Assembly (NCBI GenBank): GCA_963815455.1
Contig: CAWFGO010000001.1
Coordinates: 96,001 to 160,000 of the forward strand
Length of the DNA stretch: 64,000 nucleotides
Origin: an uncultured Verrucomicrobiae bacterium
GTDB lineage: Bacteria > Verrucomicrobiota > Verrucomicrobiia > Chthoniobacterales > UBA10450
Reading direction: 5' to 3'
The translations under genes were made by a program, and so were the position numbers. A model generated the notes under the pieces. It was given only the letters and a program-made list of their open reading frames with translations, was not told the origin of the DNA and made no database searches. Positions 22,176-62,825 of the stretch are shown here, piece by piece. How positions within the stretch are numbered: position 1 is the stretch's first letter; each line of letters starts with the position of its first letter.

Positions 22176-24812
22176 TCAGCGTTTCGCCTGGAAATCGGCC
22201 AGGAGCTTTTCGTACTTCAGCGTGGAAGGATGATTCGGGCCCAGGACTCTGCGCGCACCTTCCGCCGCGCGGCGCGCAAACTCGTTCGCTTCGGAAATCT
22301 TGTTCTGCCGGACCAGGCCGCGGGCGAAATCGTAGCAGGATTCCAAAGTATCGGGATGAGTCGGCCCAACTATCTTTTCCCGCAGTTGAAGGACGTTGCG
22401 CATTTCGGCATCGGCGTCCTGGCCCTGATCCATTTGCGTTCTGGCCAGGCCGCTGCGGCTGGACAACGTAATCGGATGCTCGGGCCCGAGCACCTTCTCT
22501 TCGAGCTTGATCAGGTCCCGAAACTGCGCTTCGGCCTCGGCATACTTGCCTTCGCCTTCGAGAATATTGGCCAGGGTGTCACGAGCACCGAGCGTGGCGG
22601 GGTTCTCCGCGCCGCTGGTCGCTTCCAGACGTCTGACGACCGGCCAAATTTCGGCCTCGGCCTCGGCATACTTGCCTTGTCGAGCGAGCGAGTCGGCAAG
22701 GTTGTTGCGGCTTCCAAGTGTATCGGGATTTTCCGGCCCGAGCACTTTCCTTTCGATCCCGATAAGCTGGCGAAACTGCGCCTCCGCTTCAGCATATTTG
22801 CCCTCGTTTTGCAGCATCACCGCGAGATTGTTGCGGCTCCCAAGGGTGTCGGGATGCTCCGGCCCGAGCACTTTCTCCCGCAGGCCTAACACGTCGCGAA
22901 ATTCGGCCACCGATTCCGCATATTTTCCCTCCGCTCCGAGCACCCCGGCAAGATTGTCGCGGGCTCCGAGTGTATCGGGATGTTCCGGGCCGAGCACTTT
23001 CCCCCTCAGTTTGATGACCTCACGAAACAGCGCTTCCGCGTCGGCATACTTGCCTTCATTTTGCAGCGTGACGGCGAGATTATTGCGATTGTCGAGCGTG
23101 TCAGGATGCGTCGGCCCGAGCACTTTCTCTTCCAGTTTGATCAGATCCCGAAACTGCGGTTCCGCCTCGGCAAATTTGCCCTCGCTTAGTAGCGTCGTAG
23201 CGAGCTTGTTACGGCTTTCAAGGGTATCGGGATGCTCTGGTCCGAGCACTTTTCCCCTGAGTTCCAGCACTTGTCGATATTCGGCTTCCGCTTCAGCATA
23301 CTTGCCTCGACTCAAGAAGGTGAAAGCCAGGTTGCCCCGGGTCCTCAGAGTGTCGGGGTGCTCAGGTCCGAGCACTTTTCCTCGGAGTTCGAGCACCTGT
23401 CGATATTCGCTTTCTGCATCCGTATACTTGCCTTCGCCCATGAGCGCGTTGGCCACACCGTGACGGCTGGAGAGCGTGTCAGGGTGTTCGCGGCCAATTA
23501 CCTTTTGCTCCAGCTTGATGACCTCCCGAAACCCGGCTTCCGCTTCGGCATATTTGCCTTGCCGGTAAAATGCGTAGGCCAAACGGGCCCGACTTCTCAG
23601 GGTGTCGGGATGTTCCGGACCGAAAACACGAGCGCGTACTTCAACAACGCTGCGCAGTACTTTTCCCGCGTCGCTGTATTGCCCCTGATCAATGAGCAGA
23701 TCGGCAATTGCGTATTGAACTTCCGACCAATCTTCCGGGTGGCGATCGCGATCAGTCAGTTTCTCAGCTTCGCGGAAGTATTCCATCGCGTGAACGTATT
23801 GAATGCGTTTCTGCGCCGACAGGCCCGCCAGTTTTAGACCAGCGACCGCAGCGCCCAACTTTGGCGGCGCACTTTTTTGTGCCTCGTCCGCCGCTTGCAA
23901 AGCCAAACGCTCCGCTTCGACATAGTCTTTCGTCACGTAAGCGGCGTTCGCGCGCTCGAAAAGACTCGCCTTGGGCGATTGCTTCAGTTGCTCGGCAAAC
24001 TTTGGGAGCTTTTCTCGAAGGACTTTCGGGTCAAGCCCGAGCTGTTTCCCGAGCTCGCTGTAAACGCGTTCCTCCAGTGCCGCCTGGTTTTCACCGGCTC
24101 GAGCTTGAACGTTCTCGACGATCGCGCCTCTTGGCCGCGCGGTGGTTTCGCCGGTTTGAGCCTGGCGCGCCCGGGCCTCGATGTTTGGATAATCCATGAT
24201 GCCTTCCCGCAGCTTGGCAATCTCGGACTTCATCTCGGCCTGGCCGTGCAGTTGCCAGATTACCAAACCGACGATGACCACAAGCAGCGCCGTAATACCC
24301 AACGCCCACTGTTTCACTCCGCGTCGAAGCTGGGTAAGATCGTCGCGCAGTTTGAGAACACTCGCCTCCAGTCCTTCGGTCGTGGTCAGAGAATGGTAAA
24401 CGTGCGTGTCGGACTGCAACGTGCGGCGATAGGCATCTTGCAATTCGCGAAGCTCTTCCGGCTCTGGTTCGTGGGGATCGATCGGAAAGGTTTCGTCGAT
24501 GAAAAGATACCAGACCTTCTTGTCCCGTTTTCGCGCATAGAGCCCTTCGTACTGGGTGTAACTAACCCGGCCGAATTCTTCATCCGCTCCCGGCGGTTCC
24601 GCGCCGTAACATTGTCCAACGAGTTGAACGACGCCCTTGCACTGATCGATTTGCTGGCGCAGCAATCCGCGCAGATCCCCGCCCTCGGTCCCGAAAATAT
24701 CCTGCCACACCGGCTGATAGCCCAAAAAGGTCAGCGTGTTAGCGACCAGTTGCCGAGCGCTGCGAAGCTCACGGCTCACCGCAGAAACGAAAATCAGGGG
24801 ACGCGGAGTCAC
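22176..24812 (-). CDS. DUF4062-like N-terminal domain, one TM helix and 12 kinesin-light-chain-type 42-aa TPR repeats
   Basis: IFVSAVSRELRSARQ..VGQCYG..SYTQYE; TM WALGITALLVVIVGLVIW; 12 GPEHPDTL-like motifs. Confidence 0.88.
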   Translation of the reverse strand: MTPRPLIFVSAVSRELRSARQLVANTLTFLGYQPVWQDIFGTEGGDLRGLLRQQIDQCKGVVQLVGQCYGAEPPGADEEFGRVSYTQYEGLYARKRDKKVWYLFIDETFPIDPHEPEPEELRELQDAYRRTLQSDTHVYHSLTTTEGLEASVLKLRDDLTQLRRGVKQWALGITALLVVIVGLVIWQLHGQAEMKSEIAKLREGIMDYPNIEARARQAQTGETTARPRGAIVENVQARAGENQAALEERVYSELGKQLGLDPKVLREKLPKFAEQLKQSPKASLFERANAAYVTKDYVEAERLALQAADEAQKSAPPKLGAAVAGLKLAGLSAQKRIQYVHAMEYFREAEKLTDRDRHPEDWSEVQYAIADLLIDQGQYSDAGKVLRSVVEVRARVFGPEHPDTLRSRARLAYAFYRQGKYAEAEAGFREVIKLEQKVIGREHPDTLSSRHGVANALMGEGKYTDAESEYRQVLELRGKVLGPEHPDTLRTRGNLAFTFLSRGKYAEAEAEYRQVLELRGKVLGPEHPDTLESRNKLATTLLSEGKFAEAEPQFRDLIKLEEKVLGPTHPDTLDNRNNLAVTLQNEGKYADAEALFREVIKLRGKVLGPEHPDTLGARDNLAGVLGAEGKYAESVAEFRDVLGLREKVLGPEHPDTLGSRNNLAVMLQNEGKYAEAEAQFRQLIGIERKVLGPENPDTLGSRNNLADSLARQGKYAEAEAEIWPVVRRLEATSGAENPATLGARDTLANILEGEGKYAEAEAQFRDLIKLEEKVLGPEHPITLSSRSGLARTQMDQGQDADAEMRNVLQLREKIVGPTHPDTLESCYDFARGLVRQNKISEANEFARRAAEGARRVLGPNHPSTLKYEKLLADFQAKR

Positions 24813-35512: not shown

Positions 35513-36574
35513 ATGGATTTTTTCTTCATCATCACGTCACTGCTGAAAATTCTCGGGATCCTTTTTGTCATAATTCTGCCGATGGTTTCTTACAGCGTGT
35601 ATGCCGAACGCCGCGTCAGCGCGCTAATTCAAGACCGGGTCGGACCGAACCGAGTCGGGCCATCGGGATTGCTTCAGCCAATCGCGGACATGTTCAAATT
35701 GCTGCTCAAAGAGGATTTCACACCGCGGCATGTGAACACGTTTTATTACTGGCTCGCGCCGGCGCTGGCGATGATGCCGGCCATTATTACCATCGCGGTT
35801 GTGCCGTTTGGCAGCACGCTTTTCGGCGTCCCGATGGTGATTGCCGACGTCAATGTTGGCGTTCTTTTCATCTTCGCCATCGCGTCGCTCGGCGTTTACG
35901 GGATCGTCATTGCCGGTTGGGCATCGAATTCAAAGTATCCGTTTCTCGGTGGAATCCGTTCCAGTTCGCAAATGCTTTCCTACGAGCTCTCCCTCGGGCT
36001 CGCCGTTATTCCGATCTTCATGCTCGTTGGAAATCTCCGGCTGACCAGTGTCGTTCAGTATCAGATCGACAACGGCTGGTTCATCGTCCCGTTCGTCGGT
36101 GACTGGATGAACCCATGGAAATGGCTCCTCGCCGTTCCGATGATAGTTTCGTTCGTAGTTTTCACGATCGCCATTTTCGCCGAAACAAATCGGTTGCCGT
36201 TCGATCTGCCCGAAGCCGAACAGGAGCTCGCCGGCGGTTATCACACCGAATACAGCTCGATGAAGTTCGCCCTCTTTTTTCTCGGTGAATACGCAGCCAT
36301 GATCACCGGCTCGGCGATTATCGTGACCTTATTTTTCGGTGGCTGGCATTTTCCCGGAATCCCGAATGGATCGCATGGATGGATTTTCGGTCTCATCAAC
36401 ATCGCGGTGTTTTTCACCAAAGTCGCCCTGCTGCTCTTTTTCTTTATCTGGGTTCGCTGGACCCTGCCCCGGTTTCGTTACGATCAATTGATGCGACTCG
36501 GCTGGCTCTTCTTTTTCGAAATCGCGCTGGTAAACATTTTTATTGTCGCGGGAATCCTGGCATTTGCCCACTAA
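35513..36574 (+). CDS. nuoH: NADH-quinone oxidoreductase subunit H
   Basis: QDRVGPNRVG, AETNRLPFDLPEAE, RWTLPRFRYDQLM. Confidence 0.97.
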   Translation: MDFFFIITSLLKILGILFVIILPMVSYSVYAERRVSALIQDRVGPNRVGPSGLLQPIADMFKLLLKEDFTPRHVNTFYYWLAPALAMMPAIITIAVVPFGSTLFGVPMVIADVNVGVLFIFAIASLGVYGIVIAGWASNSKYPFLGGIRSSSQMLSYELSLGLAVIPIFMLVGNLRLTSVVQYQIDNGWFIVPFVGDWMNPWKWLLAVPMIVSFVVFTIAIFAETNRLPFDLPEAEQELAGGYHTEYSSMKFALFFLGEYAAMITGSAIIVTLFFGGWHFPGIPNGSHGWIFGLINIAVFFTKVALLLFFFIWVRWTLPRFRYDQLMRLGWLFFFEIALVNIFIVAGILAFAH

Positions 36575-36649
36575 ACACACGAAATATCACGAAACCGTTT
36601 AGAACTAACTTGATCACATTTTTTGTGTCCTTTCGTATGTTTCGTGGGC
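36566..36649. mobile_element. MITE-like element with GCCCAC terminal inverted repeats, overlapping nuoH stop
   Basis: GCCCACTAAACACACGAAA...TTTCGTATGTTTCGTGGGC; same ends as the GxxExxY cassette. Confidence 0.75.
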
Positions 36650-36660
36650 AATTCTGATTC

Positions 36661-37191
36661 ATGACCGTTACCGTTACACGACCCAATCTAAACTGGCGCG
36701 AGCGATTATATCTGCCCGCAATCGTGGCCGGGCTCGCCATTACCTTTAAGCATTTCAAGAACATGTTGCTCGGCCGGACCAAGGTCACGATGCAATATCC
36801 CGAGCAAAAATGGGACGCGAACATGCCCGATTATTATCGCGGCGCGCCTGCGCTGGTCCGCGACACCGACGGTCGCGTCCGATGTGTGGCCTGCCAGCTT
36901 TGCGAATTCATTTGTCCGCCGCGCGCGATCACCATCGTTCCGGACGAGATTTCTTCGACCGACCGGTTCGCCAAGGTCGAGAAATACCCGATCGAGTTCG
37001 ACATCGACATGATCCGCTGCATTTACTGCGGGATGTGCGAAGAAGTTTGTCCCGAGCAGGCGATCTTTCTGCGCAAAGATTACGCCATCACCGGGTTTAC
37101 CCGCGAAGAAATGGTGCATCACAAAGACAAGCTAATCGAAATCGGCGGCGTCATGCACGGGGTCGTTTTGAAATGGAACGCAAAGAAGTAA
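36661..37191 (+). CDS. nuoI: NADH-quinone oxidoreductase subunit I
   Basis: CVACQLCEFICP and CIYCGMCEEVCP. Confidence 0.97.
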   Translation: MTVTVTRPNLNWRERLYLPAIVAGLAITFKHFKNMLLGRTKVTMQYPEQKWDANMPDYYRGAPALVRDTDGRVRCVACQLCEFICPPRAITIVPDEISSTDRFAKVEKYPIEFDIDMIRCIYCGMCEEVCPEQAIFLRKDYAITGFTREEMVHHKDKLIEIGGVMHGVVLKWNAKK

Positions 37192-37194
37192 GAC

Positions 37195-37314
37195 TTGTCA
37201 TCCCGAACCGCGAAGACGGTGAGGGATCTCGCTATTACCTGAAATTGTCGAGCCAAGGCAAGTCGACGACTTGGGCTCCGGCTGTGAGATCCTTCACTTC
37301 GTTCAGGATGACAA
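37195..37314. repeat. GTCATCC...GGATGAC palindromic element
   Basis: TTGTCATCCCGAAC..GAGGGATCTC...GAGATCCTTCAC..CAGGATGACAA. Confidence 0.88.
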
Positions 37315-37320
37315 AGCGGC

Positions 37321-37356
37321 GGCGGCGTAATGCACGGCGTCGTCCTAGAATGGAAT
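37321..37356 (+). pseudogene. Remnant second copy of nuoI 3' end
   Basis: Encodes GGVMHGVVLEWN versus GGVMHGVVLKWN at 37144..37179. Confidence 0.8.
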
Positions 37357-37413
37357 ACGACAAATGAGTTCGGAAATCCGAAATTCGAAATCCGAAATCC
37401 GAAATTAAAGAGA

Positions 37414-37917
37414 ATGTCGCCTTTTTTATTTTGGACTTTCGCAATGCTGATGCTGGTCTTCGGCGCGGCCGTTGTCATCAATCGCAATCCGGTGGCGAGC
37501 GCGCTGAGTCTGGTCGTTTCGTTTCTCGGGCTGGCCGCCCTCTTTATGTCGCTCAATGCCTATTTCATCGGCATCATTCAAGTGCTCGTTTACGCCGGCG
37601 CGGTGATGGTCCTGTTCCTTTTCATCATCATGCTTCTCCATCTTCGCATCGAGGAACGGCGCCGGATCAACTGGACGGCGTCAGCGGGCGGAATTGTCGT
37701 CGCGCTTGTTTTGCTTGTTCAAATCTTTTTCGTGATTGGAAATTTCGAGCCCGCTCGGCAAGCGATTCCGCCACTCACAGCATCGACAATTGATGATGTC
37801 CACAACATCGGCGCTCTGCTTTTCAGCAATTACAATCTTCCTCTGCAAATCATCGGGGTTCTCATTCTCGTGGCGACCATCGGCGTCGTTCTCCTGAGCA
37901 AACGCGAACCAAGATAG
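37414..37917 (+). CDS. nuoJ: NADH-quinone oxidoreductase subunit J
   Basis: RNPVASAL, QVLVYAGAVMVLFLFIIMLL. Confidence 0.95.
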   Translation: MSPFLFWTFAMLMLVFGAAVVINRNPVASALSLVVSFLGLAALFMSLNAYFIGIIQVLVYAGAVMVLFLFIIMLLHLRIEERRRINWTASAGGIVVALVLLVQIFFVIGNFEPARQAIPPLTASTIDDVHNIGALLFSNYNLPLQIIGVLILVATIGVVLLSKREPR

Positions 37918-37921
37918 TTTA

Positions 37922-38021
37922 GCCCACGAAAATACGCGAAATGACACGAAAACAGAAAATGTCAGGAAATTGCCGATGTTTATCTCTGACATTTTCGCGT
38001 TCTTTCGAGTGTTTAGTGGGC
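37922..38021. mobile_element. MITE-like element with GCCCAC terminal inverted repeats after nuoJ
   Basis: GCCCACGAAAATACGCGAAATGACACGAA...TTTAGTGGGC; retains GCCGAT....TCTCTGA like the GxxExxY gene end. Confidence 0.75.
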
Positions 38022-38034
38022 ACAAAACAATAAC

Positions 38035-38355
38035 ATGATCACGCTGGGCGATTATCTCATGGTCAGCGGCGCGCTGTTCGCCATCGGATTCGCCGGCGTG
38101 ATGCTGCGACGCAATCTCATCATTATTCTGATGTCGTTGGAGTTGATGTTGAACGCATCAAATCTATCTCTGGTAGCTTTCTCGCGATTCCGGATCGATC
38201 CCGCCGGCTTGCCGAATTACAGCGCTCAGGTCTTTGTCTTTTTTATCATCACCGTTGCCGCGGCCGAAGTTGCTGTCGGGCTGGCCATCATCGTCGCTCT
38301 CTATCGCGCCCGCCAAACGACGCATGTGGAAGATCTCAGGAGTTTGAAATTTTAG
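38035..38355 (+). CDS. nuoK: NADH-quinone oxidoreductase subunit K
   Basis: [23 protein letters not shown]. Confidence 0.96.
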
Positions 38356-38831
38356 CCCACGAAACACACGAAATGACACGAATGGAAGAAAAGGGAGAAC
38401 TCGTTTACAAAGATGAAAGCTACGCCAGCATCGGCGCGTGTTTCGTCGTCTACAAAGAGAAAGGGCTGCGGATTTCTCGAGCCGGTTTATCACGAGTGCC
38501 TGGAAATCGAGTTCGAATCCCAAAGGATCCCGTTTCGGTCAAAACCACCCCAAACGCTTCAATATCACGGGCGGACCCTTATCCAGACATTTCATCCCGA
38601 TTTCATTTGCTATGATAAGATCATCCTCGAAATCAAAGCTGTCTCCGTACTATGCGATGAGCATCGCGCTCAGGTGCTTAACTATCTCAGCGCGACGGGA
38701 TGCAAATTGGGGCTGCTCGTCAATTTTGGTCATTGGCCAAGAATCGAATACGAACGCCTCCTTCCTAGAAAACATGAACCCGCCGATTTCCGTCTCTGAA
38801 AATTTCGTGTCCTTTCGTGTGTTTAGTGGGC
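38355..38831 (+). mobile_element. GxxExxY cassette with 28-bp terminal inverted repeats
   Basis: Left GCCCACGAAACACACGAAATGACACGAA; right end reverse-complements to GCCCACTAAACACACGAAAGGACACGAA (2 mismatches). Confidence 0.75.
38382..38799 (+). CDS. GxxExxY protein (PD-(D/E)xK nuclease family); one frameshift near 38463
   Basis: ELVYKDESY..GACFVVYKEKG then CGFLEPVYHECL, PDF..IILEIK, AQVLNYL..GLLVNFG. Confidence 0.9.
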
Positions 38832-38851
38832 AAAAAATGACTCTTCTTTGC

Positions 38852-38902
38852 CGTGCCCGACAAACAACCCACGTGGAAGATCTGCGTAGCCTGAAATTTT
38901 AG
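38852..38902 (+). pseudogene. Remnant second copy of nuoK 3' end abutting nuoL ATG
   Basis: Encodes [16 protein letters not shown], identical in protein to 38305..38355. Confidence 0.9.
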
Positions 38903-40705
38903 ATGGAAGCCGAGAACCTTGTTCCCTGGATCGTGTTGCTCGCGCCGCTGGCCTCGGCGGTCGTGATCACGCTCTTCGCCCGTCGGTCACAAGGGTTGAG
39001 CAGTTTTCTTTCCGTCACTGCTGTGCTCGGGAGTTTTGCCGGGAGCTGCTGGATTTTTCAGCGCACCGGCGATTTCACAGTTGAAATCAATTGGATCGAC
39101 ATCAGCGGCGGGCTCAAGGCGCCGCTCGGGCTCACTCTCGATTATTTGTCCAAGACAATGCTGGTTCTCGTTTCTGGTGTGGGAGCGATTATCCACATTT
39201 ATTCGCTTGGTTACATGCGCGGCGAAGAGGGCAAATCGCGTTATTTCGCCGGTCTGTCGCTCTTCATGTTCGCCATGCTCGGGATCGTTCTGGCCAACAA
39301 CTTCGTGATGTTATTTATTTTTTGGGAGCTGGTGGGATTCACCTCCTACGTGCTCATCGGTCACTGGTTCGATCGTCCGGCGGCGGCAGACGCGGCCAAG
39401 AAGGCGTTCATCACCAATCGTCTCGGCGATTTCGGATTTATGCTTGGCATCCTGATGATTTGGGTGCCGACCGGCTCGGTCGTTTTTCCCGACATCAACG
39501 AGCGATTGTCGATCCTGACGAACAATCCCGCGTATCTGACGGTAGCCGCGCTTCTGATCTTCTGCGGCGCAGTCGGAAAATCCGCGCAATTTCCGCTGCA
39601 CGTCTGGTTGCCAGACGCGATGGAAGGTCCCACGCCGGTCTCAGCGTTGATCCACGCGGCGACGATGGTTGCCGCAGGCGTTTACATGCTGGCCCGCGTC
39701 GCGTTCATCATTCAAGCGTCGGAAACAGCGCTCATGGTCATTGCCTGGATCGGGACGATCACGGCGCTCATGGCCGCGCTGATTGCCACCCAACAGGACG
39801 ACATCAAGCGAGTCCTGGCTTATTCCACGCTTTCGCAGCTCGGTTACATGGTGATGGCCATCGGTCTGGCCTCGAGCGAAGCAGCGATGTTTCACTTGTT
39901 CACCCACGCGTTTTTCAAAGCGCTCCTGTTCCTCGGCGCCGGCTCGGTCATCATCGCGCTGCATCACGAACAGGACATTTGGGAAATGGGCGGCCTCTGG
40001 CGCAATCTCAAGATTACGTTTGTCACATTTCTCATCGGCGCGTTGGCCCTCATGGGTTTGCCGCCGTTCAGCGGTTTTGTCAGCAAGGATGCGATCCTTG
40101 CTCTGGCCTACGAGCATAACAAATCGATCTTCGTGCTCGCCCTGGGCACCGCGTTCTTGACCGCGTTTTATGTCACTCGTTTGCTCATGGTTGTTTTTCT
40201 TGGGCACCCGCGCGGACACGCGGCCCGGGTCAGCAAAGAATCGACGTTTGTCATGACGGGGCCGCTCGTCGTTCTCGCGCTCCTCGTGATTGCGAGCAGT
40301 TTCGCTGCGTTCAACAATCATTTCCTTGTTCTTCCAAGCCAGGGCGCATTTTTAGAGACCGTTCCTTTGTTCGCCACCGGCGCGCTCGTCTTCGGCGTCG
40401 GGCTCGCCTTTCTGTTTTATCGCGGACGCGCCACCGAAGCTGTCTACGTCGATCTTCTCCGCCGCCGTTTTTACATCGACGATTTTTATCAATGGCTCAT
40501 CAACTGGACCCAGGAACTGCTCGCCCGCGTCGCTGCGTTCTTCGATCGCTGGATAATCGACGCCGGCGCGGTCCGCGGAGTGAGCGGCGGCACCTGGGGA
40601 GTCGGCGCGCTGTTGCGATTGGTTCAAGTAGGTAATTTGCAGGCTTACGCGTTTCTCTTCGGCCTGGGCATCGTCGCGCTCATTTATTTTGCCGTTTTCC
40701 GATAG
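38903..40705 (+). CDS. nuoL: NADH-quinone oxidoreductase subunit L
   Basis: GKSAQFPLHVWLPDAMEGPTPVSALIHAATMV, HLFTHAFFKALLF. Confidence 0.97.
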   Translation: MEAENLVPWIVLLAPLASAVVITLFARRSQGLSSFLSVTAVLGSFAGSCWIFQRTGDFTVEINWIDISGGLKAPLGLTLDYLSKTMLVLVSGVGAIIHIYSLGYMRGEEGKSRYFAGLSLFMFAMLGIVLANNFVMLFIFWELVGFTSYVLIGHWFDRPAAADAAKKAFITNRLGDFGFMLGILMIWVPTGSVVFPDINERLSILTNNPAYLTVAALLIFCGAVGKSAQFPLHVWLPDAMEGPTPVSALIHAATMVAAGVYMLARVAFIIQASETALMVIAWIGTITALMAALIATQQDDIKRVLAYSTLSQLGYMVMAIGLASSEAAMFHLFTHAFFKALLFLGAGSVIIALHHEQDIWEMGGLWRNLKITFVTFLIGALALMGLPPFSGFVSKDAILALAYEHNKSIFVLALGTAFLTAFYVTRLLMVVFLGHPRGHAARVSKESTFVMTGPLVVLALLVIASSFAAFNNHFLVLPSQGAFLETVPLFATGALVFGVGLAFLFYRGRATEAVYVDLLRRRFYIDDFYQWLINWTQELLARVAAFFDRWIIDAGAVRGVSGGTWGVGALLRLVQVGNLQAYAFLFGLGIVALIYFAVFR

Positions 40706-40813
40706 CCCACGAAACACACGAAATGACACGAAAAGGAGAAACAGATCTGATTTACGGCGACTCGCTGATTCCTATTTCTGAAAATTCCGTGTCTTTTCGT
40801 GGGTTTCGTGGGC
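40705..40813. mobile_element. MITE-like internal-deletion derivative of the GxxExxY cassette at nuoL stop
   Basis: First 28 bp identical to cassette left end; interior resembles the first and last codons of the GxxExxY ORF. Confidence 0.78.
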
Positions 40814-40838
40814 AAGCAAATCCCCTCCTCTTTCTCTG

Positions 40839-42320
40839 ATGCTTCTTTTCCTCATATTTTGCCCGATCGTTGCGGCGTTCGTGATCATGGCCGGCGCGCC
40901 GGCCCGAAAAACGGCGTTGCTCGCTTCGTGGTTGATGCTCGCGTCCGCGGCCGCACTCTTCGCTCAATTCGCGCAGCTCGAACCGAAGTTTCAGTTTGTC
41001 AGTTCATTTCCAATTTCTCCCGAGTTGCATCTCGGCTTTACCGTTGGGCTCGACGGTTTGAGCCTGATCATGGTGCTGCTGGCCGCCATCGTCACGGTCG
41101 CGGCCGTCTGGTTCGCCGGTAAGATCGACAATCACGAAAATGCATTCTACGCCTGCCTGCTTTTTATTTCCGGCGGCGCGATCGGAGCATTTTCGTCGCT
41201 CGATTTGTTTTTCTTTTATGCCTTTCACGAACTCGCGCTCATCCCGACATTCCTGCTGATCGGAATCTGGGGGAGCGGAAATCGCGTGGCCGCGGCGTGG
41301 AAGATCACAATTTATCTCGCAGTCGGTAGCTTCATCTTGCTGCTTGGCTTGATCCTGCTTTACCAAAGCGTCCCGGCCGCATCGCGGAGTTTCGATATTC
41401 GCGAGCTACAGGCTGCGATCGCGACGCGGCAGATTCCGGCGAATGCGCAGCACAACATTTTCCTGCTCCTGCTTGTCGGCTTCGGAATTCTCGTCTCGCT
41501 GTTTCCGTTCCATACCTGGGCGCCGGAGGCGTACGCATCCGCGCCCGCCCCGGCGGCAATGCTGCATGCCGGCGTCCTGAAAAAATTCGGGCTTTACGGT
41601 TTGCTGCGGATTGCCCTCCCGCTGCTCCCGGAAGGAGCGCGGCACTGGAGCCATCTGTTAATCGTGCTGCTGCTCGGGAATATCATTTACATCGGGTTGG
41701 TCACCATCGCGCAAAAACGACTCGATTGGATGCTTGGTTACTCCAGCGTGATGCACATGGGTTACATTTTTCTCGGGATCGCCAGTGCCAACGTTCTCGG
41801 CACCACTGGGGCCGCGACTCTGATATTCGCGCACGGGCTTTCCATCGCGTTGCTGTTCGCGCTGGCGGGGGAAATTCGCACCCGTACCGGCACGCTCGTG
41901 TTCAGCGATCTCGGCGGTCTCGCGAAAGTGATGCCATTCGCCGGTCTCGCCTTCGGGCTCGGCGCATTCGCGGCCATCGGTCTTCCCGGCTTCGCCAACT
42001 TCGCCGGCGAAATCATGATCTTTTTCGGCGCGTTCCGAACCGGCTGGGATATGACGCGGTTCCACACGTTTCAAATCGCGACCGCGCTGGCGCTCTGGGG
42101 CGTGGTGATCTCAGCCGTTTATATGCTCCGCGCGTATCGAAATGCATTCATGGGTCCGCCGAATGAGCGCTGGAACAAGCTTGTCGATCTTCGTCCCGGC
42201 CTGCGCATCCCGATCGCGTTGCTGGTCGCCGCGCTTCTCTGGATCGGATTTTATCCCCAATCGTTTATCCGCATTCTTGCGCCGGCGCCGAGCACTTATT
42301 CCGCATCCGCAAAGCCATGA
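40839..42320 (+). CDS. nuoM: NADH-quinone oxidoreductase subunit M
   Basis: GLDGLSL, FPFHTWAPEAY, YSSVMHMG, GLPGFANFAGE. Confidence 0.96.
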   Translation: MLLFLIFCPIVAAFVIMAGAPARKTALLASWLMLASAAALFAQFAQLEPKFQFVSSFPISPELHLGFTVGLDGLSLIMVLLAAIVTVAAVWFAGKIDNHENAFYACLLFISGGAIGAFSSLDLFFFYAFHELALIPTFLLIGIWGSGNRVAAAWKITIYLAVGSFILLLGLILLYQSVPAASRSFDIRELQAAIATRQIPANAQHNIFLLLLVGFGILVSLFPFHTWAPEAYASAPAPAAMLHAGVLKKFGLYGLLRIALPLLPEGARHWSHLLIVLLLGNIIYIGLVTIAQKRLDWMLGYSSVMHMGYIFLGIASANVLGTTGAATLIFAHGLSIALLFALAGEIRTRTGTLVFSDLGGLAKVMPFAGLAFGLGAFAAIGLPGFANFAGEIMIFFGAFRTGWDMTRFHTFQIATALALWGVVISAVYMLRAYRNAFMGPPNERWNKLVDLRPGLRIPIALLVAALLWIGFYPQSFIRILAPAPSTYSASAKP

Positions 42321-43741
42321 TTGCCGCGCCCTCACTCGAAATTGCCGTGCTCGTTCTGGGCATGCTGCTCCTGATGTGGGAAGCGTTTGCCACCAAGACC
42401 GACAAGCGCGTTTTGGCCGTTACTGGAATTGTCAGCCTCACGCTCGTGCTGGCAGCGTCGTTCTTTTTGATTCCAAATATCGAACCCGGACAGATCAGCG
42501 GTTTCCGTGGCTTTTGCACCGTCGATCCGCTGTCGATCTTCTTTAAGCGATTTGCGCTGGTTACGACCATTTTCGTGCTGGTGATGATGATCGATTACGC
42601 GCCGGTCGTGCGCAGTTGGTTCCCCGGCGGGACTGCGCAAGCCGGCCTCGGTGAATTTTTCTCGATCCCGATCTTTACCTGCGCCGGACTGATGTATCTG
42701 GTCTCGGCCGTCGATTTCATTTTCATTTTCGTCGCGCTCGAGCTGGTCACGATCTCATTTTATGTCCTGGTCAGTTTCACTCGACGAAACCCGCTGACGC
42801 TCGAAGCCGGAGTGAAATATCTGGTGTTGAGCGCCCTCTCGACCGGATTTCTGGTTTACGGGATTACCTGGATCTTCGGAGCAACAGGCGAAACGAATCT
42901 GCAACGCATCGCCGAGGCTTTGGCGAACCCCGAAACCGAACATGGCGCCGCGCTCTTTGGCATGGTGCTCGTCCTCATCGCGCTCGGATTCAAAATCGCA
43001 GCGGTGCCATTCCAAATCTGGGTGCCCGATGTTTACCAGGGCGCGCCAACGCCGGTGACAGCGTTTCTTTCCGTCGGCTCGAAAGCGGCGGGGTTCGTCG
43101 TTTTGCTGCGCGTGTTGCAACCGTTCTCGATGATGCCGCAAATGCACCGGTTGATCGTCCTGCTCGCGTTCCTCACCCTGATTTACGGAAATCTGGCCGC
43201 GTTGCCCCAAACAAATTTGAAACGACTGCTGGCTTATTCGAGCATCGCTCACGCCGGCTATTTGCTCGTCGGCGTGGCCTGCTTCGACGGACCGGCAGTC
43301 GGGTTCTATCTCATCGCGTATCTAATTATGACGCTTTTGAGCTTTGCTGTGCTGGTCATCGTTTCGCAACAAACCGGCGAACAGATCGCCGATTTCAACG
43401 GCCTGGCCACGCGCTCGCCCTTTCTCGCCTTCGCCATGTTAACCGGAATGATCTCACTCGCCGGCGTGCCATTCACCGCCGGGTTTCTCGGAAAATTCTT
43501 TATCTTCTACGCCGCCATCGCGCACCGACAGATCGCGCTGGTGGTCGTTGGCGTGATCACGGTCGGCTGCGGATTTTATTATTATCTCAAAGTGATCCGC
43601 GCGATGTATTGGCAACCCGCACCGAACACCGACAAGATCCCAGTCAGCGCCCTGTCACGTTTCGCGATCAGCGCCTTGATTATCGCCACGATCTGGCTCG
43701 GCGTTTATCCGCAGCCGATCCTCGATGCGTTAAAGCGGTAG
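42317..43741 (+). CDS. nuoN: NADH-quinone oxidoreductase subunit N
   Basis: EAGVKY, FKIAAVPFQIWVPDVYQGAPTP, KRLLAYSSIAHAGY. Confidence 0.96.
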   Translation: MIAAPSLEIAVLVLGMLLLMWEAFATKTDKRVLAVTGIVSLTLVLAASFFLIPNIEPGQISGFRGFCTVDPLSIFFKRFALVTTIFVLVMMIDYAPVVRSWFPGGTAQAGLGEFFSIPIFTCAGLMYLVSAVDFIFIFVALELVTISFYVLVSFTRRNPLTLEAGVKYLVLSALSTGFLVYGITWIFGATGETNLQRIAEALANPETEHGAALFGMVLVLIALGFKIAAVPFQIWVPDVYQGAPTPVTAFLSVGSKAAGFVVLLRVLQPFSMMPQMHRLIVLLAFLTLIYGNLAALPQTNLKRLLAYSSIAHAGYLLVGVACFDGPAVGFYLIAYLIMTLLSFAVLVIVSQQTGEQIADFNGLATRSPFLAFAMLTGMISLAGVPFTAGFLGKFFIFYAAIAHRQIALVVVGVITVGCGFYYYLKVIRAMYWQPAPNTDKIPVSALSRFAISALIIATIWLGVYPQPILDALKR

Positions 43742-43760
43742 CATCTGCGATCTGACCTCC

Positions 43761-43809
43761 GGAGGGTCGTGCTTCTGCACGACCAGGACGTGAAGAATCA
43801 CGTCCCTCC
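43761..43809. repeat. GGAG-type REP doublet between convergent genes
   Basis: GGAGGGTCGTGCTTCTGCACGACC-A-GGACGTGAAGAATCACGTCCCTCC. Confidence 0.8.
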
Positions 43810-43817
43810 GAACCGGA

Positions 43818-44429
43818 TCAGTCGCTCAGTTCGACGTTCCAGTAGGCAAGATCGACAAAGTGCCGCCAGCTTTCGTGTTGCGGCGCGGAGAACGTGACAT
43901 GCACGAATGGACGCCACTTCGGCCGCTTCGGTTTGCGAATGAGAATCATGTGCGCTTCCTGCGGAAGCCGGTTCCCCTTGCGGGTATTACAGGGGATACA
44001 CGAGCAAACCACATTTTCCCACGTCGTCGTCCCACCCCGGTCGCGCGGGACCACGTGATCAAGATTCAGATCGTTCCGATCGAACGTGTGACCGCAATAC
44101 TGGCAGGTGTTCTTGTCCCGTTCGAAAACGTTGTGCCGGGTAAATTTCACTTCCTTTTTCGGCAACCGATCGAAAAACAGCAGCACGATCACCCGCGGGA
44201 CCCGGATCTTGAACGAAATCGTCGGGACCAGCTCATGGGCGGGCGCGTTAGCCGAAAAATCGCGCCAGCTATCGAAATCGTGGGTAAGAAAATTGTTTGG
44301 CTCGTCCGACGAAACGACATGAGCGTGTCCCGCATAGACAAGCGAGAAAGCCCGCCGGGCAGAACAGATATTCACCGCCTGCCAGAGGCGATTCAGCACC
44401 AGAACCTGACTGTTCAACGAGGATTGCAA
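43818..44429 (-). CDS. HNH endonuclease family protein
   Basis: VLVLN, RDKNTCQYCG, LDHVVPRDRGG..WENVVCSCIPCNTRKGN. Confidence 0.92.
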   Translation of the reverse strand: MQSSLNSQVLVLNRLWQAVNICSARRAFSLVYAGHAHVVSSDEPNNFLTHDFDSWRDFSANAPAHELVPTISFKIRVPRVIVLLFFDRLPKKEVKFTRHNVFERDKNTCQYCGHTFDRNDLNLDHVVPRDRGGTTTWENVVCSCIPCNTRKGNRLPQEAHMILIRKPKRPKWRPFVHVTFSAPQHESWRHFVDLAYWNVELSD

Positions 44430-44551
44430 ATGTGTCCCTCCTACCGCTTTGCGCCCGCACTACCGCGAGCATTTACGGAAATGGGCCGACAGGTACCACC
44501 CGCGTTTTTCATTGTCAACGCGGAGGGCCCAGCCTGTTCTGGTGCCTGCGC

Positions 44552-44653
44552 TGTAGCCGCGGTCGCTGACCGCGGCCGCGCGGATTATCTCTGTTCCTTG
44601 CGGCCGATCCGCCTTCGCTGGGCTTCGGCGTGACGGGCACGGCCACCTCTACA
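44552..44653. repeat. GTAG-type REP doublet with a nested 30-bp hairpin element
   Basis: TGTAGCCGCGGTCGCTGACCGCGG...CTCTACA; nested TCCGCCTTCGCTGGGCTTCGGCG at 44608. Confidence 0.7.
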
Positions 44654-44702
44654 CCTACGAAATCTGACTTGTCGATCTTGTATTCGATCATAAGGTCGAA
44701 GC

Positions 44703-44906
44703 ATGAGCGGGCAAGGTTCGGCGGGCAATGTACTGGCGGCGCTCTGCAGTTTCTTTATCCCGGGGCTGGGACAATTGCTCCAGGGACGATTGCTGATGGC
44801 GATCTTCCAGTTTTGTCTGGCGGCGGTTCTCTGGTTCGTTCTGCTCGGCTGGGTGATTCATTTGTGGTCGATCCTTGACGCGGCGCTGTTCAAGCCGGCA
44901 ACGTGA
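44703..44906 (+). CDS. Small membrane protein
   Basis: GNVLAALCSFFIPGLGQLLQGR motif plus TM helices. Confidence 0.75.
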   Translation: MSGQGSAGNVLAALCSFFIPGLGQLLQGRLLMAIFQFCLAAVLWFVLLGWVIHLWSILDAALFKPAT

Positions 44907-45048
44907 CGTCGCATCCGGATTGACGGCGTCTGACACAACGACCTACAGGGGGATTACATTAAGAGATGTCTCCCAGCCTCCGCGTAAAGCTACGGCGCGG
45001 CAGGCGACTCCGCTCGACATGACAAGCGATTCGTGTCCATTCGTGGTT

Positions 45049-46091
45049 ATGACCGCGCAGTTTCCTAGCGAGCAGACGGAGTCCGGGGAATTTAAGCGTC
45101 AGGAAGACGCGTTTCGGGAATGGATCTCGAATGATGGATCAACTCCCTATCCCGCTACGGCTAATCGTTATCATCTTTACGTTTCGCTGGAGCCTGCCCG
45201 TGGGCGAGCCGGACGGTGATATTTCGGAAGCTGAAAGGACTCGAAGAAGCGATCGGCCTGACGATTGTCGATCCTGTTCGGGACAACAATGGCTGGGCGT
45301 TCCGCGATCCTGGAGGGGCGACCTCCGTGTCGTCCTCCTGCCCGGACGTGCCGAAGCACGTCCCTCCGTCGACTGATCCGGTTAACGGGTTTCATTATCT
45401 GAGCGAAGCCTACGCGGCGACCGATCCGAATTACGACGGGCGCGTCACTGTGCCGGTACTGTGGGACAAGGAAACAAGAAAGATCGTTAACAATTGCGAG
45501 GACGATATCTGTCGCATGTTCAACGACGCGTTCAACGAGTTTGCCCGGAACAAAGACGTCGATCTTTTTCCGGATGAGATTGAGGCGGAGCACATGAAGC
45601 TTTGCGAATTCATTCACGACAACGTAAACAACGGCGTTTATCGGGCCGGGTTCGCCACTCGCCAGCGAGCTTACGAGATTTCCTGCCGAAAACTCTTTGA
45701 GGCACTCGACGAACTGGAACAACGCCTGTCGAAAAGCCGCTATTTGTTTGCGAATCCCGGTGGAGAGAGCGGGAAGCTGTCAGCTTCCCCTACAGTTGGG
45801 AATCGAATTGTCGAAGCGGACTGGCGATTATTTTGCACGCTGGTCCGGTTCGACGTCGTCTATCACGGGCATTTCAAATGTAACATTCGCCGCATCATCG
45901 ATTACCCGAACCTGCAGGGTTATCTGATGGATTTGTATCAGCGGCCTGGGATCGCGCAGACCGTGAACTTCGATCACATCAAGCGTCATTATTATATGAC
46001 GCACACCGAGATTAATCCGACGCGCATTGTTCCGCTTGGTCCGGCACTCGACCTCACGACGCCGCATGGGCGGGAGGCCATGAAGAATTGA
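45049..46091 (+). CDS. Glutathionyl-hydroquinone reductase (YqjG-like GST); frameshift near 45190; two in-frame REP insertions
   Basis: RYHLYVSL-(ACPWASR), RVTVPVLWDK, VNNGVYRAGFA, EADWRLF..RFD, HIKRHYY. Confidence 0.92.
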
Positions 46092-46297
46092 GCCCGCGAA
46101 TTACGCGAATGGGCGCGAATGAAAAACGGATTGATCCGCCAAACACGCCAAAAGACCCCAAATAGGAACGGATTTGCTTCCCCCCTAAACACACTAAAAG
46201 GCGCGAAAATGTTCCAGGCACTTGTGATAAACCGGTTCGTCATTTCGTGTGTTTCGTGGGGTTAGTTCCCCCGGACGGGACAGAGCCCATCCCTCCA
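46092..46297. repeat. Cluster of degenerate CACGAA-type element ends plus a GGAG REP half
   Basis: GCCCGCGAATTACGCGAA.., CCCCTAAACACACTAAA..TTTCGTGTGTTTCGTGGGG, GGACAGAGCCCATCCCTCC. Confidence 0.6.
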
Positions 46298-46381
46298 GGT
46301 TCGCCGAACGGATGCGAAAGCTATAGAGGCGGCGAGATTCATGAATTGACGGAGTCTTCCTGTTAAGATAGCGGTGGGGTC

Positions 46382-47200
46382 GTGAGACGGACTGCCTCAA
46401 CCCTGTCGATCCTGCTGGCCTTGAGCGCGTTCGCGTTTGCCGGGCCCGAAAGCTATTCCGGTAAGGAAATGAAGCAGGTAGCGCGCTACGAAACGCCCTC
46501 CTGTCCGAACTGGACCGGGTTCTACATTGGCGGCTTTGGCGGATACAAGTTTGGAGTGATCGATCCAACCCTTCGGTTGGGTGGATTCTGGGAAGACTCA
46601 CAGCCGGACTTGGAGACGTTAAAGTCCCGCGCCGACGACAACCTCGACACCAGCGGCGCGGAGCTGGGAGGATTGATCGGTTACAATCATCAGTGGAACA
46701 ACTGGGTGCTGGGTCTGGAGGCCGCCGGCAGTTATCTCTGGTTGCGAGATTCGCACGGGGACGGTGATTTCTTCTCATCAAACGGGAACCAGTTCTTCAC
46801 TGAGACTTCATTCAAGACGCACTACCTGTTCACGGTCGGACCACGCATTGGTTATGCCTTATGCAAGTGGTTGCCATACGTCACCGGGGGGCTGGCGGTG
46901 GGAGACCTGGATTTCCACCAGCAATTTCACGCGCCGGACTTCTTTCCCGAAATAGCCGGCGGCACAAAAAGCGAGACGAATGCCGGGTGGTTTGTTGGCG
47001 GCGGGCTGCAATATGCCCTAACCGATCGGTTTCGTGAGGGACAGAATTTTCCCGCCTGGAGCGTCAGAGTCCAATATCAATACGTCGATCTTGGATCGAC
47101 GAGTTTCGATCACGATTCGGTGCCCTCCAGTTACCCGAGCGGCAGCAAAGTGGAATTGCGGGAGGACAACGCTTCGTTCGCCATCATCTACGGTTTTTAA
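46382..47200 (+). CDS. Outer membrane beta-barrel protein (Omp25/31-like)
   Basis: Signal peptide, WTGFYIGG, GGLIGYNHQW, terminal Phe. Confidence 0.88.
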   Translation: MRRTASTLSILLALSAFAFAGPESYSGKEMKQVARYETPSCPNWTGFYIGGFGGYKFGVIDPTLRLGGFWEDSQPDLETLKSRADDNLDTSGAELGGLIGYNHQWNNWVLGLEAAGSYLWLRDSHGDGDFFSSNGNQFFTETSFKTHYLFTVGPRIGYALCKWLPYVTGGLAVGDLDFHQQFHAPDFFPEIAGGTKSETNAGWFVGGGLQYALTDRFREGQNFPAWSVRVQYQYVDLGSTSFDHDSVPSSYPSGSKVELREDNASFAIIYGF

Positions 47201-53288: not shown

Positions 53289-53433
53289 CTGGGGAGCACA
53301 GGCTGCCAGCCTGTTGTTTTCGGCAGCTTGCCGAAAAGCTCTTCGAACACACAATGTTTAGTCGGCTACGACGTCGAGCAAATGTCGTCGGCAAGCTGCC
53401 GCCGACTGCAGGCTGGCAGCCTGCGCTCCCCAG
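53289..53433. repeat. CTGGGGAGCACAGG...CCTGTGCTCCCC multi-hairpin element
   Basis: Terminal IR plus internal CGGCAGCTTGCCG/CGGCAAGCTGCCG; copies at 54635, 58252, 62685. Confidence 0.9.
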
Positions 53434-53494
53434 AATCGATATGCATCCTAAAAAAATTTTGCGCACGGTTGTCGATCCTGCGTAAAATCACTGG

Positions 53495-54562: not shown

Positions 54563-54864
54563 CGAAGCTCGAATGACGAAATCCGAAGGAATGTCCTAAT
54601 GACGAATGACCAAAAGGCGCGCATTCGCGTAACTCTGGGGAGCACAGGCCGCCGGCCTGTGGGATTCGGCCGCTGGCCGAATGCATTTGGGTGCAAATAC
54701 GTTGAGGAACCTAAACAGATTCGCGGCAAGCTGCCGCGAAGTACAGGCTGGCAGCCTGTGCTCCCCGGACACAAAACCCGTTCGCCAATTTTTTATCATG
54801 GCTTCGACATTCGTCGTTGGAATTTCGTCATTGTATCGGCATTCGGATTTCGTGCTTCGTCATT
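54558..54864. repeat. AATGACG-array inverted element containing a nested CTGGGGAGC element (54635..54768)
   Basis: AATGACGAAGCTCGAATGACGAA...TTCGTGCTTCGTCATT outer arms. Confidence 0.82.
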
Positions 54865-56992: not shown

Positions 56993-58249
56993 ATGCCTCA
57001 AGTTCCAATCACCATGCCGCAGCTCGGCGAATCGATGGCCGAAGCGACGATTGTTTCAATCAAAGTGAAGCCGGGCGAGAAAGTCGCGGCCGATCAGGAG
57101 ATCATTGAAGTCGAAACTGACAAAGCGATCATGGGCGTGACCACGCCGTGCCCGGGGGAGATTGCGAAGATCGACGCAGAAGTGAAAGGCGTTTATCCGG
57201 TTGGCGCCGTGCTCGGATACGTGGAAGCGAGCGAAGCAGATGCGGCGCGATTTCAAAAACGCGCACCCGAACCGCCAAAGGGCGAAGTATCGATGGAAAT
57301 TCCCGGTCGCGAAGAGGAGCCTGCTGGCGCGGGTAATGGCAGCAGCTCCCATTTTCAAGTGGACGATACCGCTTTGCCGCAAGTCGCAGTGGGGTCGGAT
57401 GTCGATCAACGCGGCGGTTTGCCGGTTCCGGCGAGCGCCAAAGGCGCGGGATATCTTTCGCCGCGGGTCCGAGCCCGCATGGCCGAGTTGCAATTGACCC
57501 AGGCCGATCTTGCCAGCATCGCTGGCACAGGCTCGGCCGGCCGGGTTACGATCAAGGACCTGGAGACTTTTCTCAGTTCGATCGAATCGCAACCAGCGGA
57601 AAAACCGAGCGCGATTCGCACCGGCGTTGCCGATGCGATGCGACGCAGCTGGGCCCGGCCACTGGCAACGGTGGGCGTTTCGGTTTGTTTGGATCCGGTG
57701 CTGCAGGACCGCGCGCAACGCGACCCGAAACCCGGCCCGGCGTTGTATGCGGTGCGCGCGCTAGCCCTCGCACTTGCCGAGCAACCGAACGCCGCCGCTC
57801 GATTGATCGGCGGCCGGGCGATCAGCTCACAATCGATCGACATCGGAGTCGCTGTCGAAGCTGGGGAAGGAATCATGGTCCCGGTGATTCGTAACGCCGA
57901 CAAAACTTCGCTGGCCGACATGATGAATCGTTACACCGAGCTTGTCGATCTTGCGCGACGCCGGCGCCTGACGAGCGAGATGACTTCGGGCGGAATTGCT
58001 TCCGTTTCCAATTTTGGAACGTTCGGCCTGGACTGGGGCACACCGATTCCTCTCCCGGATCAGACGATGATCCTTGGACTCGGCGCAGGAAAGAAAACCC
58101 CGGTGTGGGACGAATCGAAAAATGAATTCGTTCCGAAAACCGAAGCGCAAGTCACATTAAGCTTCGATCATCGTAGCCTCGATGGCGGCGGCGCCGGACG
58201 CTTGCTCAAGCGGGTGATCGAGTTGCTGGAAGAGCCGGAGACGCTCTGA
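56993..58249 (+). CDS. 2-oxoacid dehydrogenase E2 (dihydrolipoamide acyltransferase)
   Basis: MPQLGES, EVETDKA lipoyl lysine, GTGSAGRVT, SFDHR. Confidence 0.93.
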   Translation: MPQVPITMPQLGESMAEATIVSIKVKPGEKVAADQEIIEVETDKAIMGVTTPCPGEIAKIDAEVKGVYPVGAVLGYVEASEADAARFQKRAPEPPKGEVSMEIPGREEEPAGAGNGSSSHFQVDDTALPQVAVGSDVDQRGGLPVPASAKGAGYLSPRVRARMAELQLTQADLASIAGTGSAGRVTIKDLETFLSSIESQPAEKPSAIRTGVADAMRRSWARPLATVGVSVCLDPVLQDRAQRDPKPGPALYAVRALALALAEQPNAAARLIGGRAISSQSIDIGVAVEAGEGIMVPVIRNADKTSLADMMNRYTELVDLARRRRLTSEMTSGGIASVSNFGTFGLDWGTPIPLPDQTMILGLGAGKKTPVWDESKNEFVPKTEAQVTLSFDHRSLDGGGAGRLLKRVIELLEEPETL

Positions 58250-58251
58250 AT

Positions 58252-58382
58252 CTGGGGAGCGCAGGCTGTCGGCCTGCAGTCGGCGGCAGCTTGCCGACGA
58301 CACGTAATTATTGCAACACCATGACTGACAAGCTTTTCGGCAAGCTGCCGAAAACAACAGGCTAGCAGCCTGTGCTCCCCAG
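58252..58382. repeat. CTGGGGAGC multi-hairpin element
   Basis: Same terminal and internal IRs as 53289..53433. Confidence 0.9.
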
Positions 58383-62680: not shown

Positions 62681-62684
62681 GGCT

Positions 62685-62824: not shown

Positions 62825-62825
62825 A

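Follow-up and report, generated by a model that had tools for sequence, protein, structure and literature searches.

What is a 477-bp unit with one small gene doing between nuoK and nuoL, and how could it have come there? The locus lies in a 64,000-nucleotide stretch of an uncultured Verrucomicrobiae bacterium (contig CAWFGO010000001.1, positions 96,001 to 160,000), hereafter the window. An earlier note on this DNA had described an open reading frame (ORF) of the GxxExxY family filling a 477-bp unit with inverted repeats at its ends, and three short elements with the same ends in the nuo operon. The elements proved to be as described, by coordinates, arms and matches to PF13366 and TIGR04256; the interpretation given to them, an autonomous/non-autonomous pair of mobile elements moved by the nuclease, with short copies like miniature inverted-repeat transposable elements (MITEs), was partly supported as a whole. 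We found that the unit belongs to a cassette family that is real, mobile, selected and apparently undescribed. Its mobility is very probable. That it is a promoterless selfish mini-cassette, spreading like a free-standing homing endonuclease and driven by its own nuclease, has in our judgement an even chance of being right. The cassette and its immediate surroundings are:

38035..38355, + strand: nuoK, host gene whose 3' end is the home site (Pfam/TIGRFAM-type profile matches)
38355..38831, + strand: full cassette, made up of left arm, GxxExxY ORF and right arm (477 bp) and lying between nuoK and nuoL
38355..38382, + strand: left arm, three CACGAA(A/T)-type units; begins with the G of the nuoK TAG
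38382..38799, + strand: GxxExxY / PDDEXK_3 ORF, frameshifted by 1 nt in 38460-38465; the family E, D and ExK residues are present
38804..38831, - strand: right arm, 2 mismatches to the left arm
38832..38844, + strand: right flank, by alignment like the nuoL start of another cassette-bearing allele (L266) and probably donor-derived
38845..38902, + strand: second nuoK 3' end, synonymously diverged from 38298-38355; its TAG abuts the nuoL ATG
38903..40705, + strand: nuoL, host gene downstream of the cassette (profile matches)

The inverted arms turned out to be a rule of the family. PF13366 was present in 133 of 151 family genomes and in 61 of 121 in the phylum sample. Its 422 matches in the family were sampled as about 100 loci from the best-scoring ones and 20 nuo operons, so the locus sample favours full-length genes. 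Flanking inverted repeats (score ≥24) occurred at 72 of 85 ORFs, compared with 6 of 255 controls that were displaced and 6 of 1700 that were shuffled, and in the phylum and viral set (30 phylum-level and 2 viral loci) at 27 of 33, compared with 2 of 124 controls. Viral contigs as a vehicle were represented by 2 loci only, one of them with arms, in a search that used a narrow peptide pattern. The arm type followed the protein tree, with 17 changes vs 59 after shuffling, as the earlier note had anticipated for the repeat sequences; linkage alone would give the same result. The start of 68 of the 71 arm-bounded cassettes fell ≤35 bp from the stop of a co-oriented upstream ORF, and each protein clade had its own dominant home junction. 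On the sequence level, these loci show a cassette that sits co-oriented right after the stop of a conserved gene, with clade-specific arms and home junction(s). A DNA-pattern scan of the genome collection gave at least 84 ends and at least 70 paired units. Among the matches listed, all 8 units of 400-499 bp carried a GxxExxY gene, one 197-bp unit carried a gene fragment, and the other units were gene-less; at least two loci of the nine gene-bearing units were already in the family set. The tallies of the family and of the arms include the unpublished genomes G003, G008, G015, G141 and G161, on which no conclusion depends (G141 is 1 of the 85 rows of the arm analyses, and G003 and G008 are among the empty-site rows).

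The arms were highly conserved in sequence across relatives, with the outer 18 bases of the left arm kept at 79-100% in 72 relatives. No compensatory pairing between the arms was detected, the score with the own partner being 23.85 vs 24.0 with shuffled partners. Such conservation without compensatory covariation suits binding by a protein, and the arms may thus act as protein sites. The nuo arm type was held by 15 of 27 genomes with a nuo-clade protein vs 15 of 124 others, a comparison that counts the cassettes' own arms and in which kin are not independent. The nuo-clade cassette was single copy in 25 of the 27 carrier genomes, and two genomes (G022 and G157) held many arms without the closest cognate gene.

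Two further sets of loci carry GxxExxY genes within arms. The nuoF-G junction is the home of another GxxExxY clade, with CAGGAA-type arms (L065, L068, L069, L071, L073, L074, L076, L079 and L108), and is empty in several other genomes. Three Opitutae-type records (L227, L238 and L284) have the arm type of the window's nuoK-L cassette and a GxxExxY gene, apparently between ABC-transporter genes, as judged from translation.

The cassette ORF of the window matched PF13366 (E 2e-31) and TIGR04256 (E 2.5e-32) with scores of 108.9 and 111.7 bits, above the curated cut-offs of 22 and 35 bits, respectively. PF13366 was its only match in the Pfam search, and neither the Pfam nor the TIGR profiles show a recognised transposase. 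The accessible part of PMC3424549 lists the function of the GxxExxY family as Unknown and records multiple transfers. The AlphaFold2 model of an intact relative (predicted local distance difference test 91.9) was closest in fold to Cas4 SSO0001 (Foldseek E 8e-5; Z 8.2, root-mean-square deviation 4.7, 104 aligned), followed by lambda exonuclease and RecB-like domains; the Z of 8.2 is modestly higher than that of the other restriction-fold rows. E31, E41, E81 and K83 were invariant in 82 sequences, and D71 was kept in ≥90%. With a restriction-like core in the model and the conserved D...ExK, the protein is predicted to belong to the PD-(D/E)xK superfamily. No strand-transfer domain was evident in the structure model, a PDB sequence search with the family alignment gave 0 matches at E ≤1, and a homodimer prediction score of 0.01 counted neither way. 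The ORF is under purifying selection, the ratio of nonsynonymous to synonymous change (dN/dS) being about 0.07 over 258 pairs of the closest metagenome relatives. A promoter scan found 0 promoter-like sites, with terminator counts at chance, and Rfam gave no match at E ≤0.1 in 36000-47000. A second GxxExxY cassette, also frameshifted, lies elsewhere in the genome (G000 C2:225065-225490); it has its own arm variant, whose motif has 14 matches in the genome, and the gene before it, probably tgt as read from translation, takes its stop from the cassette's left arm.

If the cassette is mobile, relatives should differ in its presence, and empty sites in their nuo operons, which the earlier note had suggested looking for, were plentiful. 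Among 100 scored nuoK-L junctions, 60 were empty, 16 were full (three arm types), 5 held short derivatives and 19 held other inserts. The J-K junction was empty in 90 of 101 cases, L-M in 76 of 87 and H-I in 38 of 96. The K-L states were unclustered on the nuoI/J/L tree (32 changes vs 32.5 shuffled in 89 genomes, after 11 genomes with stops or truncation were dropped), and the identity of the cassettes was uncorrelated with that of the nuoL proteins (rho -0.06, 170 pairs). Close relatives carry different cassette types. The genus holds one other genome only, so there is no strain-level pair of an empty and a filled site, and the comparison at four-fold sites among family genomes was mostly saturated. 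That other genome (G001) carries a full cassette at exactly the nuoL-M position of the window's 109-bp copy, and a short copy at the site of the window's full cassette. Stepwise internal deletions were visible in four genomes (G009, G011, G076 and G132). The junctions thus show a cassette that was evidently gained, lost and replaced at its home junctions across species, and the stepwise cases support the view, already held in the earlier note, that short copies arise by internal deletion of full cassettes.

The exchange between hosts was followed in the 80 closest of at least 532 metagenome relatives. Both arms were present in 76 of the 80, nearly all units measured 455-477 bp, and 74 had an intact ORF. 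Synonymous change in the upstream flank, cassette and downstream flank was 0.09/0.47/0.08 for the pair L412-L426 and 0.55/0.13/0.44 for L427-L446. Since cassette and flanks decouple in both directions, a mere difference in rate is ruled out; the borders of the decoupling were sharp, within about 60 bp of the arms. Of 25 L-M pairs with upstream flanks ≥90% identical, 15 had cassettes ≤85% identical and 0 had downstream flanks ≤85% identical, and blocks of host genes, used as controls for this test, gave 2 of 61 (0/29, 2/20, 0/6 and 0/6). Conversely, cassettes 94.5% identical were found in hosts with flanks 71-75% identical. This pattern is the one expected if the cassette is inherited horizontally at a fixed site and its flanks are co-converted, as suggested by few independent events on metagenome contigs.

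The same data bear on the idea that the cassette is a domesticated host module, inherited vertically and tuning the expression or processing of the operon mRNA, with patchiness due to repeated loss. Purifying selection, placement between cistrons and mostly one copy per clade would suit such a role. The occupancy unclustered on the host tree, the different cassette types in close relatives and the near-identical cassettes in distant hosts do not, and the swaps and synonymous-change contrasts largely refute it, unless the contigs are chimeric. We find this explanation scarcely credible.

Movement to new junctions was also evident. The 74 complete units lay after nuoL (34), nuoK (20), nuoJ (8) or elsewhere (12), and on the cassette tree the site label needs no fewer than 11 changes (the minimum being 3), compared with 35.8 after shuffling, so sites are still strongly clustered. 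A left flank like the last 12-16 bases of nuoK was present at 31 of 53 non-K sites vs 9 of 767 control windows. Two loci (L440 and L459) have about 27 bases of the nuoK end at a non-nuo site, and three other non-nuo loci (L434, L438 and L439) appear, by eye, to have a nuoL end and a nuoM start from an L-M ancestor. Altogether, relocated copies carry 12-45 bp of their former flanks. A fixed target-site duplication was absent from the family, genome-collection and metagenome loci, a set without a very close pair of empty and filled sites, and no cross-site pair among the 74 units was >88% identical. In four loci (L406, L454, L458 and L482), we observed tandem stacks in which a full cassette adjoins a short copy or arm of greater age; those of L406 are separated by a duplicated nuoL end. 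A nuoK word resembling the arm end was considered as the nuclease target and rejected, being neither depleted nor enriched (6 of 60 empty sites, 1 of 6 genome carriers and 1 of 20 metagenome carriers); no site of cutting came to light.

These jumps are the ground on which a classical pair of autonomous and non-autonomous elements has to be judged. MITEs are internally deleted relatives of autonomous insertion sequences. In such a pair, the protein would be a RAYT- or TnsA-like transposase that acts on the terminal repeats and cuts and pastes full and short elements. Terminal inverted repeats, genome-wide cognate short copies, internal deletions and the site switches are all as such a pair predicts, and TnsA itself is a PD-(D/E)xK protein that takes part in transposon excision, according to the accessible part of PMC3424549. 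On the other side stand the fixed duplication that is found at no junction, the flanks that travel with the cassette, the single copy in nearly all carriers, the lack of near-identical copies at different sites, and a model in which no strand-transfer domain is evident. The cassette likewise differs from an insertion sequence and its MITEs in having no DDE or HUH transposase and imprecise ends. The transposon with defined ends and MITEs proposed in the earlier note was thus not upheld, given travelling flanks, no fixed duplication and preferred home junctions with swaps, and we consider the classical pair improbable. The three observations that the earlier note had named as damaging to its own proposal came out in its favour: relatives have empty sites, other GxxExxY genes have inverted repeats, and no conventional transposase was tracked by the ends, as far as Y1/RAYT genes are concerned, which do not lie beside the ends in this genome (the search covered no other transposase families).

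Copying through RNA would be another way to carry flanks of variable length. Here, the operon transcript would be reverse-transcribed by a reverse transcriptase (RT) encoded elsewhere, and the cDNA with its variable flanks would recombine at a nuclease nick. The co-oriented upstream stop of nearly all cassettes and the absence of a promoter-like site agree with this scheme, as does the four-helix-bundle family discussed below, which we take to be related to bAvd of the diversity-generating retroelements. The orientation is equally explained by a need for host transcription, the cassette has no RT (one acting in trans was not searched for), and the sole paper that pairs GxxExxY with RT treats GxxExxY as a mislabelled cas4 neighbour. 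We give this scheme very little credence.

The absence of a fixed duplication, the carried flanks and a diverged copy of the nuoK end fit instead a homing-like recombination by break and copy. That copy, at 38845-38902, was absent from the account of the earlier note. It differs from the nuoK end at 38298-38355 by 13 nucleotides, and 10 of the 11 changed codons are synonymous (P ~3e-6 vs neutral decay). With changes so nearly all synonymous, both nuoK ends were formerly coding, in different lineages. The ATG at 38837 opens a 21-codon frame that ends at the nuoL ATG. We infer that a donor segment was joined by homology on its left side and by microhomology on its right side. A similar order of gene end, cassette and gene end was found in G018, and a third such joint is hinted at in two soil contig sets, weakly, with 85% likeness.

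Under the homing-like reading, a Cas4/RecB-like nuclease would be made from the host operon transcript, bind its cognate arms, and nick or break DNA at or near the junction; host recombination would then copy the cassette from a donor allele. With homology on both sides, the result would be a clean swap. Homology on one side together with microhomology on the other would leave a donor gene end, the cassette and a stranded recipient gene end, as in 38298-38902, or would lead to a new site. Gene-less hairpins would be derivatives movable in trans by the same activity. The nuclease as the driver of mobility is itself inferred from the sequences.

Several observations weigh against this reading. 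At close range, cassette and flanks mostly descended together (rho 0.53-0.63 for cassette and flank, compared with 0.74-0.81 for the two flanks), and at K-L all 6 pairs with both flanks ≥90% identical also have cassettes ≥90% identical. The discordant pairs are not independent, tracing at L-M to about six sequences and at K-L to two to three groups, and metagenome contigs can be chimeric at repeats. In a RecB-like domain of 136 residues, a module for recognition of a long site is not obvious. Both GxxExxY genes of the genome are frameshifted. The window ORF has one extra base at 38460-38465 that relatives do not have, and the assembly is prone to indels (conserved genes totalling about 54 kb hold 6 other frameshift sites); as both genes are hit, beyond the indel rate of the assembly, sequencing or assembly error and real decay remain in balance as explanations. 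Long gene-end duplications were detected for 7 of 68 cassettes at p ≤0.01, with 2 clear cases, the window and G018; such duplication was rejected as a general rule. When the junction scan was widened, 9 of 187 were flagged; about 7 seem genuine, and in 4 of those the hairpin belongs to another family. Moreover, genes of the four-helix-bundle family PF05635, which are not known nucleases, had arms in 12 of the 13 tested of 20 matches in this genome, and a PF05635 cassette with TCTTCC-type arms occupies nuoH-I in L170, L179, L182, L196, L203 and L208. Many families of gene-less hairpins take turns at all the nuo junctions examined. In nuoI-J (37143-37408), a GTCAT...ATGAC hairpin lies at about 37196-37313 (its motif has 331 matches in the genome); after it come a diverged second nuoI 3' end (37320-37367) and a 7-mer arm. 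The same layout recurs in G049, G073 and G157, where the copy begins at almost the same codon, which hints at a fixed break point in nuoI. The duplicated gene end is therefore not specific to cassettes, as it also follows gene-less GTCAT hairpins in 4 genomes. Because non-nuclease cassettes and gene-less hairpins share the layout and the footprint, the movement is shown but its catalyst is not.

It is thus conceivable that the spread is driven by the host. Arm hairpins would be broken by host structure-specific nucleases or stalled forks and shuffled by host recombination, and the protein would be an arm-binding cargo with a role in autoregulation or RNA processing. GxxExxY, four-helix-bundle and other arm-bounded cassettes would then share one mechanism and resemble minimal mobile elements that have hotspots built in. 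Besides the PF05635 layout, the alternating hairpin families and the footprint left with gene-less hairpins, G022 agrees with this explanation, having 25 matches to the nuo arm but a sister-type cassette at K-L. Against this explanation stand the invariant catalytic-type residues and the dN/dS of 0.07, arms conserved in sequence beyond pairing, an arm type that tracks the protein clade, and the co-occurrence of cognate clade and arm (with kin again not independent). We regard the host-driven spread as rather unlikely, though of serious weight.

Minimal mobile elements are not known to have terminal repeats, to encode a nuclease of their own or to jump to new junctions. Those of Neisseria, cited in PMC1797815, are nevertheless alike in that alternative small inserts occur at one syntenic junction between conserved genes; this and the following comparisons concern the accessible parts of the sources. 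The free-standing homing endonucleases of T4-like phages (seg/mob), known for "intronless homing" (PMC2988022), share more with the cassette: their nuclease gene stands alone between conserved genes, often lacks a promoter and is expressed from host transcripts, spreads by recombination that co-converts flanks, and passes through a cycle of gain, decay and loss. The trait of a lone gene with empty alleles in relatives is present here, as seen at nuoK-L. Unlike the T4 enzymes, the GxxExxY cassette resides in a bacterial chromosome, has a Cas4/RecB-like PD-(D/E)xK fold instead of GIY-YIG or HNH, has clade-specific inverted arms and genome-wide gene-less hairpins, and its cleavage is only predicted. 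The REPIN/RAYT and TIRtron/TIRYT systems (PMC3733652; bioRxiv 10.1101/2021.07.10.451892) resemble it in a single-copy gene between cognate inverted repeats, dispersed gene-less hairpins and a repeat type tied to the clade. They differ by the HUH (Y1) tyrosine transposase, absent from the cassette, and by GTAG/CGTC tags, absent from its arms; RAYTs are also described as non-jumping and vertically inherited (bioRxiv 10.1101/2021.07.10.451892), whereas the GxxExxY cassette changes site and host. The 16 Y1 matches of this genome each lie ≥6.5 kb from any end of the nuo repeat family. The S23p intervening sequence of Coxiella, an ORF-bearing insert of the 23S rRNA (PMC4990558), is, like our cassette and the PF05635 cassettes, about 0.45 kb long with one small ORF, horizontally acquired and prone to decay; it lies in rRNA and not between protein genes, and encodes a different protein. 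The paired tandem repeats of Geobacter metallireducens, "predicted global regulator binding sites" (PMC2700814), are likewise intergenic, with arrays of short tandem repeats set in inverted pairs around variable spacers, but are described as regulator sites, with no link to GxxExxY or mobility. By analogy, the cassette would work most like a free-standing homing endonuclease, dressed like a TIRtron. No description of a link between GxxExxY and arms was found in the literature covered, which excluded subscription papers, bioRxiv supplements and the supplements of PMC2700814.

PF13366 is common yet without assigned function, and the evidence offers a concrete substrate (its own arms, at a named junction) and a life cycle. 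If the nuclease is the driver, the cassette would be a very small homing-like element in bacterial chromosomes; it would account for families of hairpins between genes, for gene ends that were rewritten and for mosaic borders within core operons such as complex I, and compact nucleases with many natural specificities would be at hand. We also entertain, tentatively and with more doubt than conviction, a mobile-DNA class of its own: cassettes of about 0.45 kb in which one small protein reads its short-unit arms and triggers recombinational copying into operon junctions, with no transposase or integrase. GxxExxY would be its nuclease-type driver, the four-helix-bundle and other families would be parallel, and together they would explain many intergenic hairpin repeats of bacteria that so far lack an explanation.

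The short copies in the window and a related stack of arms are:

36566..36649, + strand: gene-less hairpin, nuoH-I; gives the last two codons and the stop of nuoH; interior not ORF-derived
37922..38021, + strand: short derivative, nuoJ-K; 3' end of the ORF kept; left flank TTTA resembles the home-site nuoK-end flank
40705..40813, + strand: short derivative, nuoL-M; both ORF ends kept
46092..46261, + strand: arms of three sister repeat types, stacked and nested, behind the stop of a GST-like (glutathione S-transferase-like) gene

All four nuo units were confirmed within an intact nuoH-N operon. Over 28 bp, the arms had 2 mismatches in 38355-38831, 3 in 40705-40813 and 6 in 36566-36649, and those of 37922-38021 match if a 1-nt insertion in the left arm is permitted. 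A profile of the eight element ends gave 38 matches of ≥8 bits across the 3.6-Mb genome, with the eight nuo ends at 28-38 bits; the reversed genome gave 2 matches only (10.1 and 9.5 bits). The earlier note had claimed that the copies at 37922 and 40705 retain sequence of the ORF end, which holds beyond the arms (0 of 300 interior shuffles scored as high); the claim does not extend to 36566, whose interior likeness to the ORF ends is at chance (250 of 300). Predicted folds of the short copies were hairpins of -26 to -48 kcal/mol. Full cassettes occurred at J-K in 8 metagenome relatives.

The position of all four at or within 5 bp of a stop codon was also borne out. The final GCC CAC TAA of nuoH lies inside element 36566, the TAG of nuoK and that of nuoL each supply the first G of the element that follows, and the nuoJ stop is 5 bp from its element. 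Sister repeat types likewise supply the nuoH end in G018, G050, G069, G084 and G130. Genome-wide, this placement was not general for short copies outside the nuo operon: an upstream stop ≤30 bp away was found at 5 of 29 strong ends, 3 of them nuo ends, against a background of 6%, in a count based on a long-ORF proxy that is blind to short genes such as nuoK. The related end reported at 46092 is present, as a sister type (CGCGAAT) in the nested arm stack and not as the nuo type itself. The GST-like gene before it (44875-46091) is broken near 45200 by a frameshift that is probably an indel of the assembly, and an HNH endonuclease gene (43818-44429, - strand) lies directly downstream of nuoN. Hairpins with GGGGAGC-type ends at 53289-53437, 54635-54770, 58248-58386 and 62684-62826 fit the TIRtron GGGGWSAS motif. 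At 22509-23516, the window holds at least 7 tandem 126-nt (42-codon) repeats, probably of a minus-strand repeat protein.

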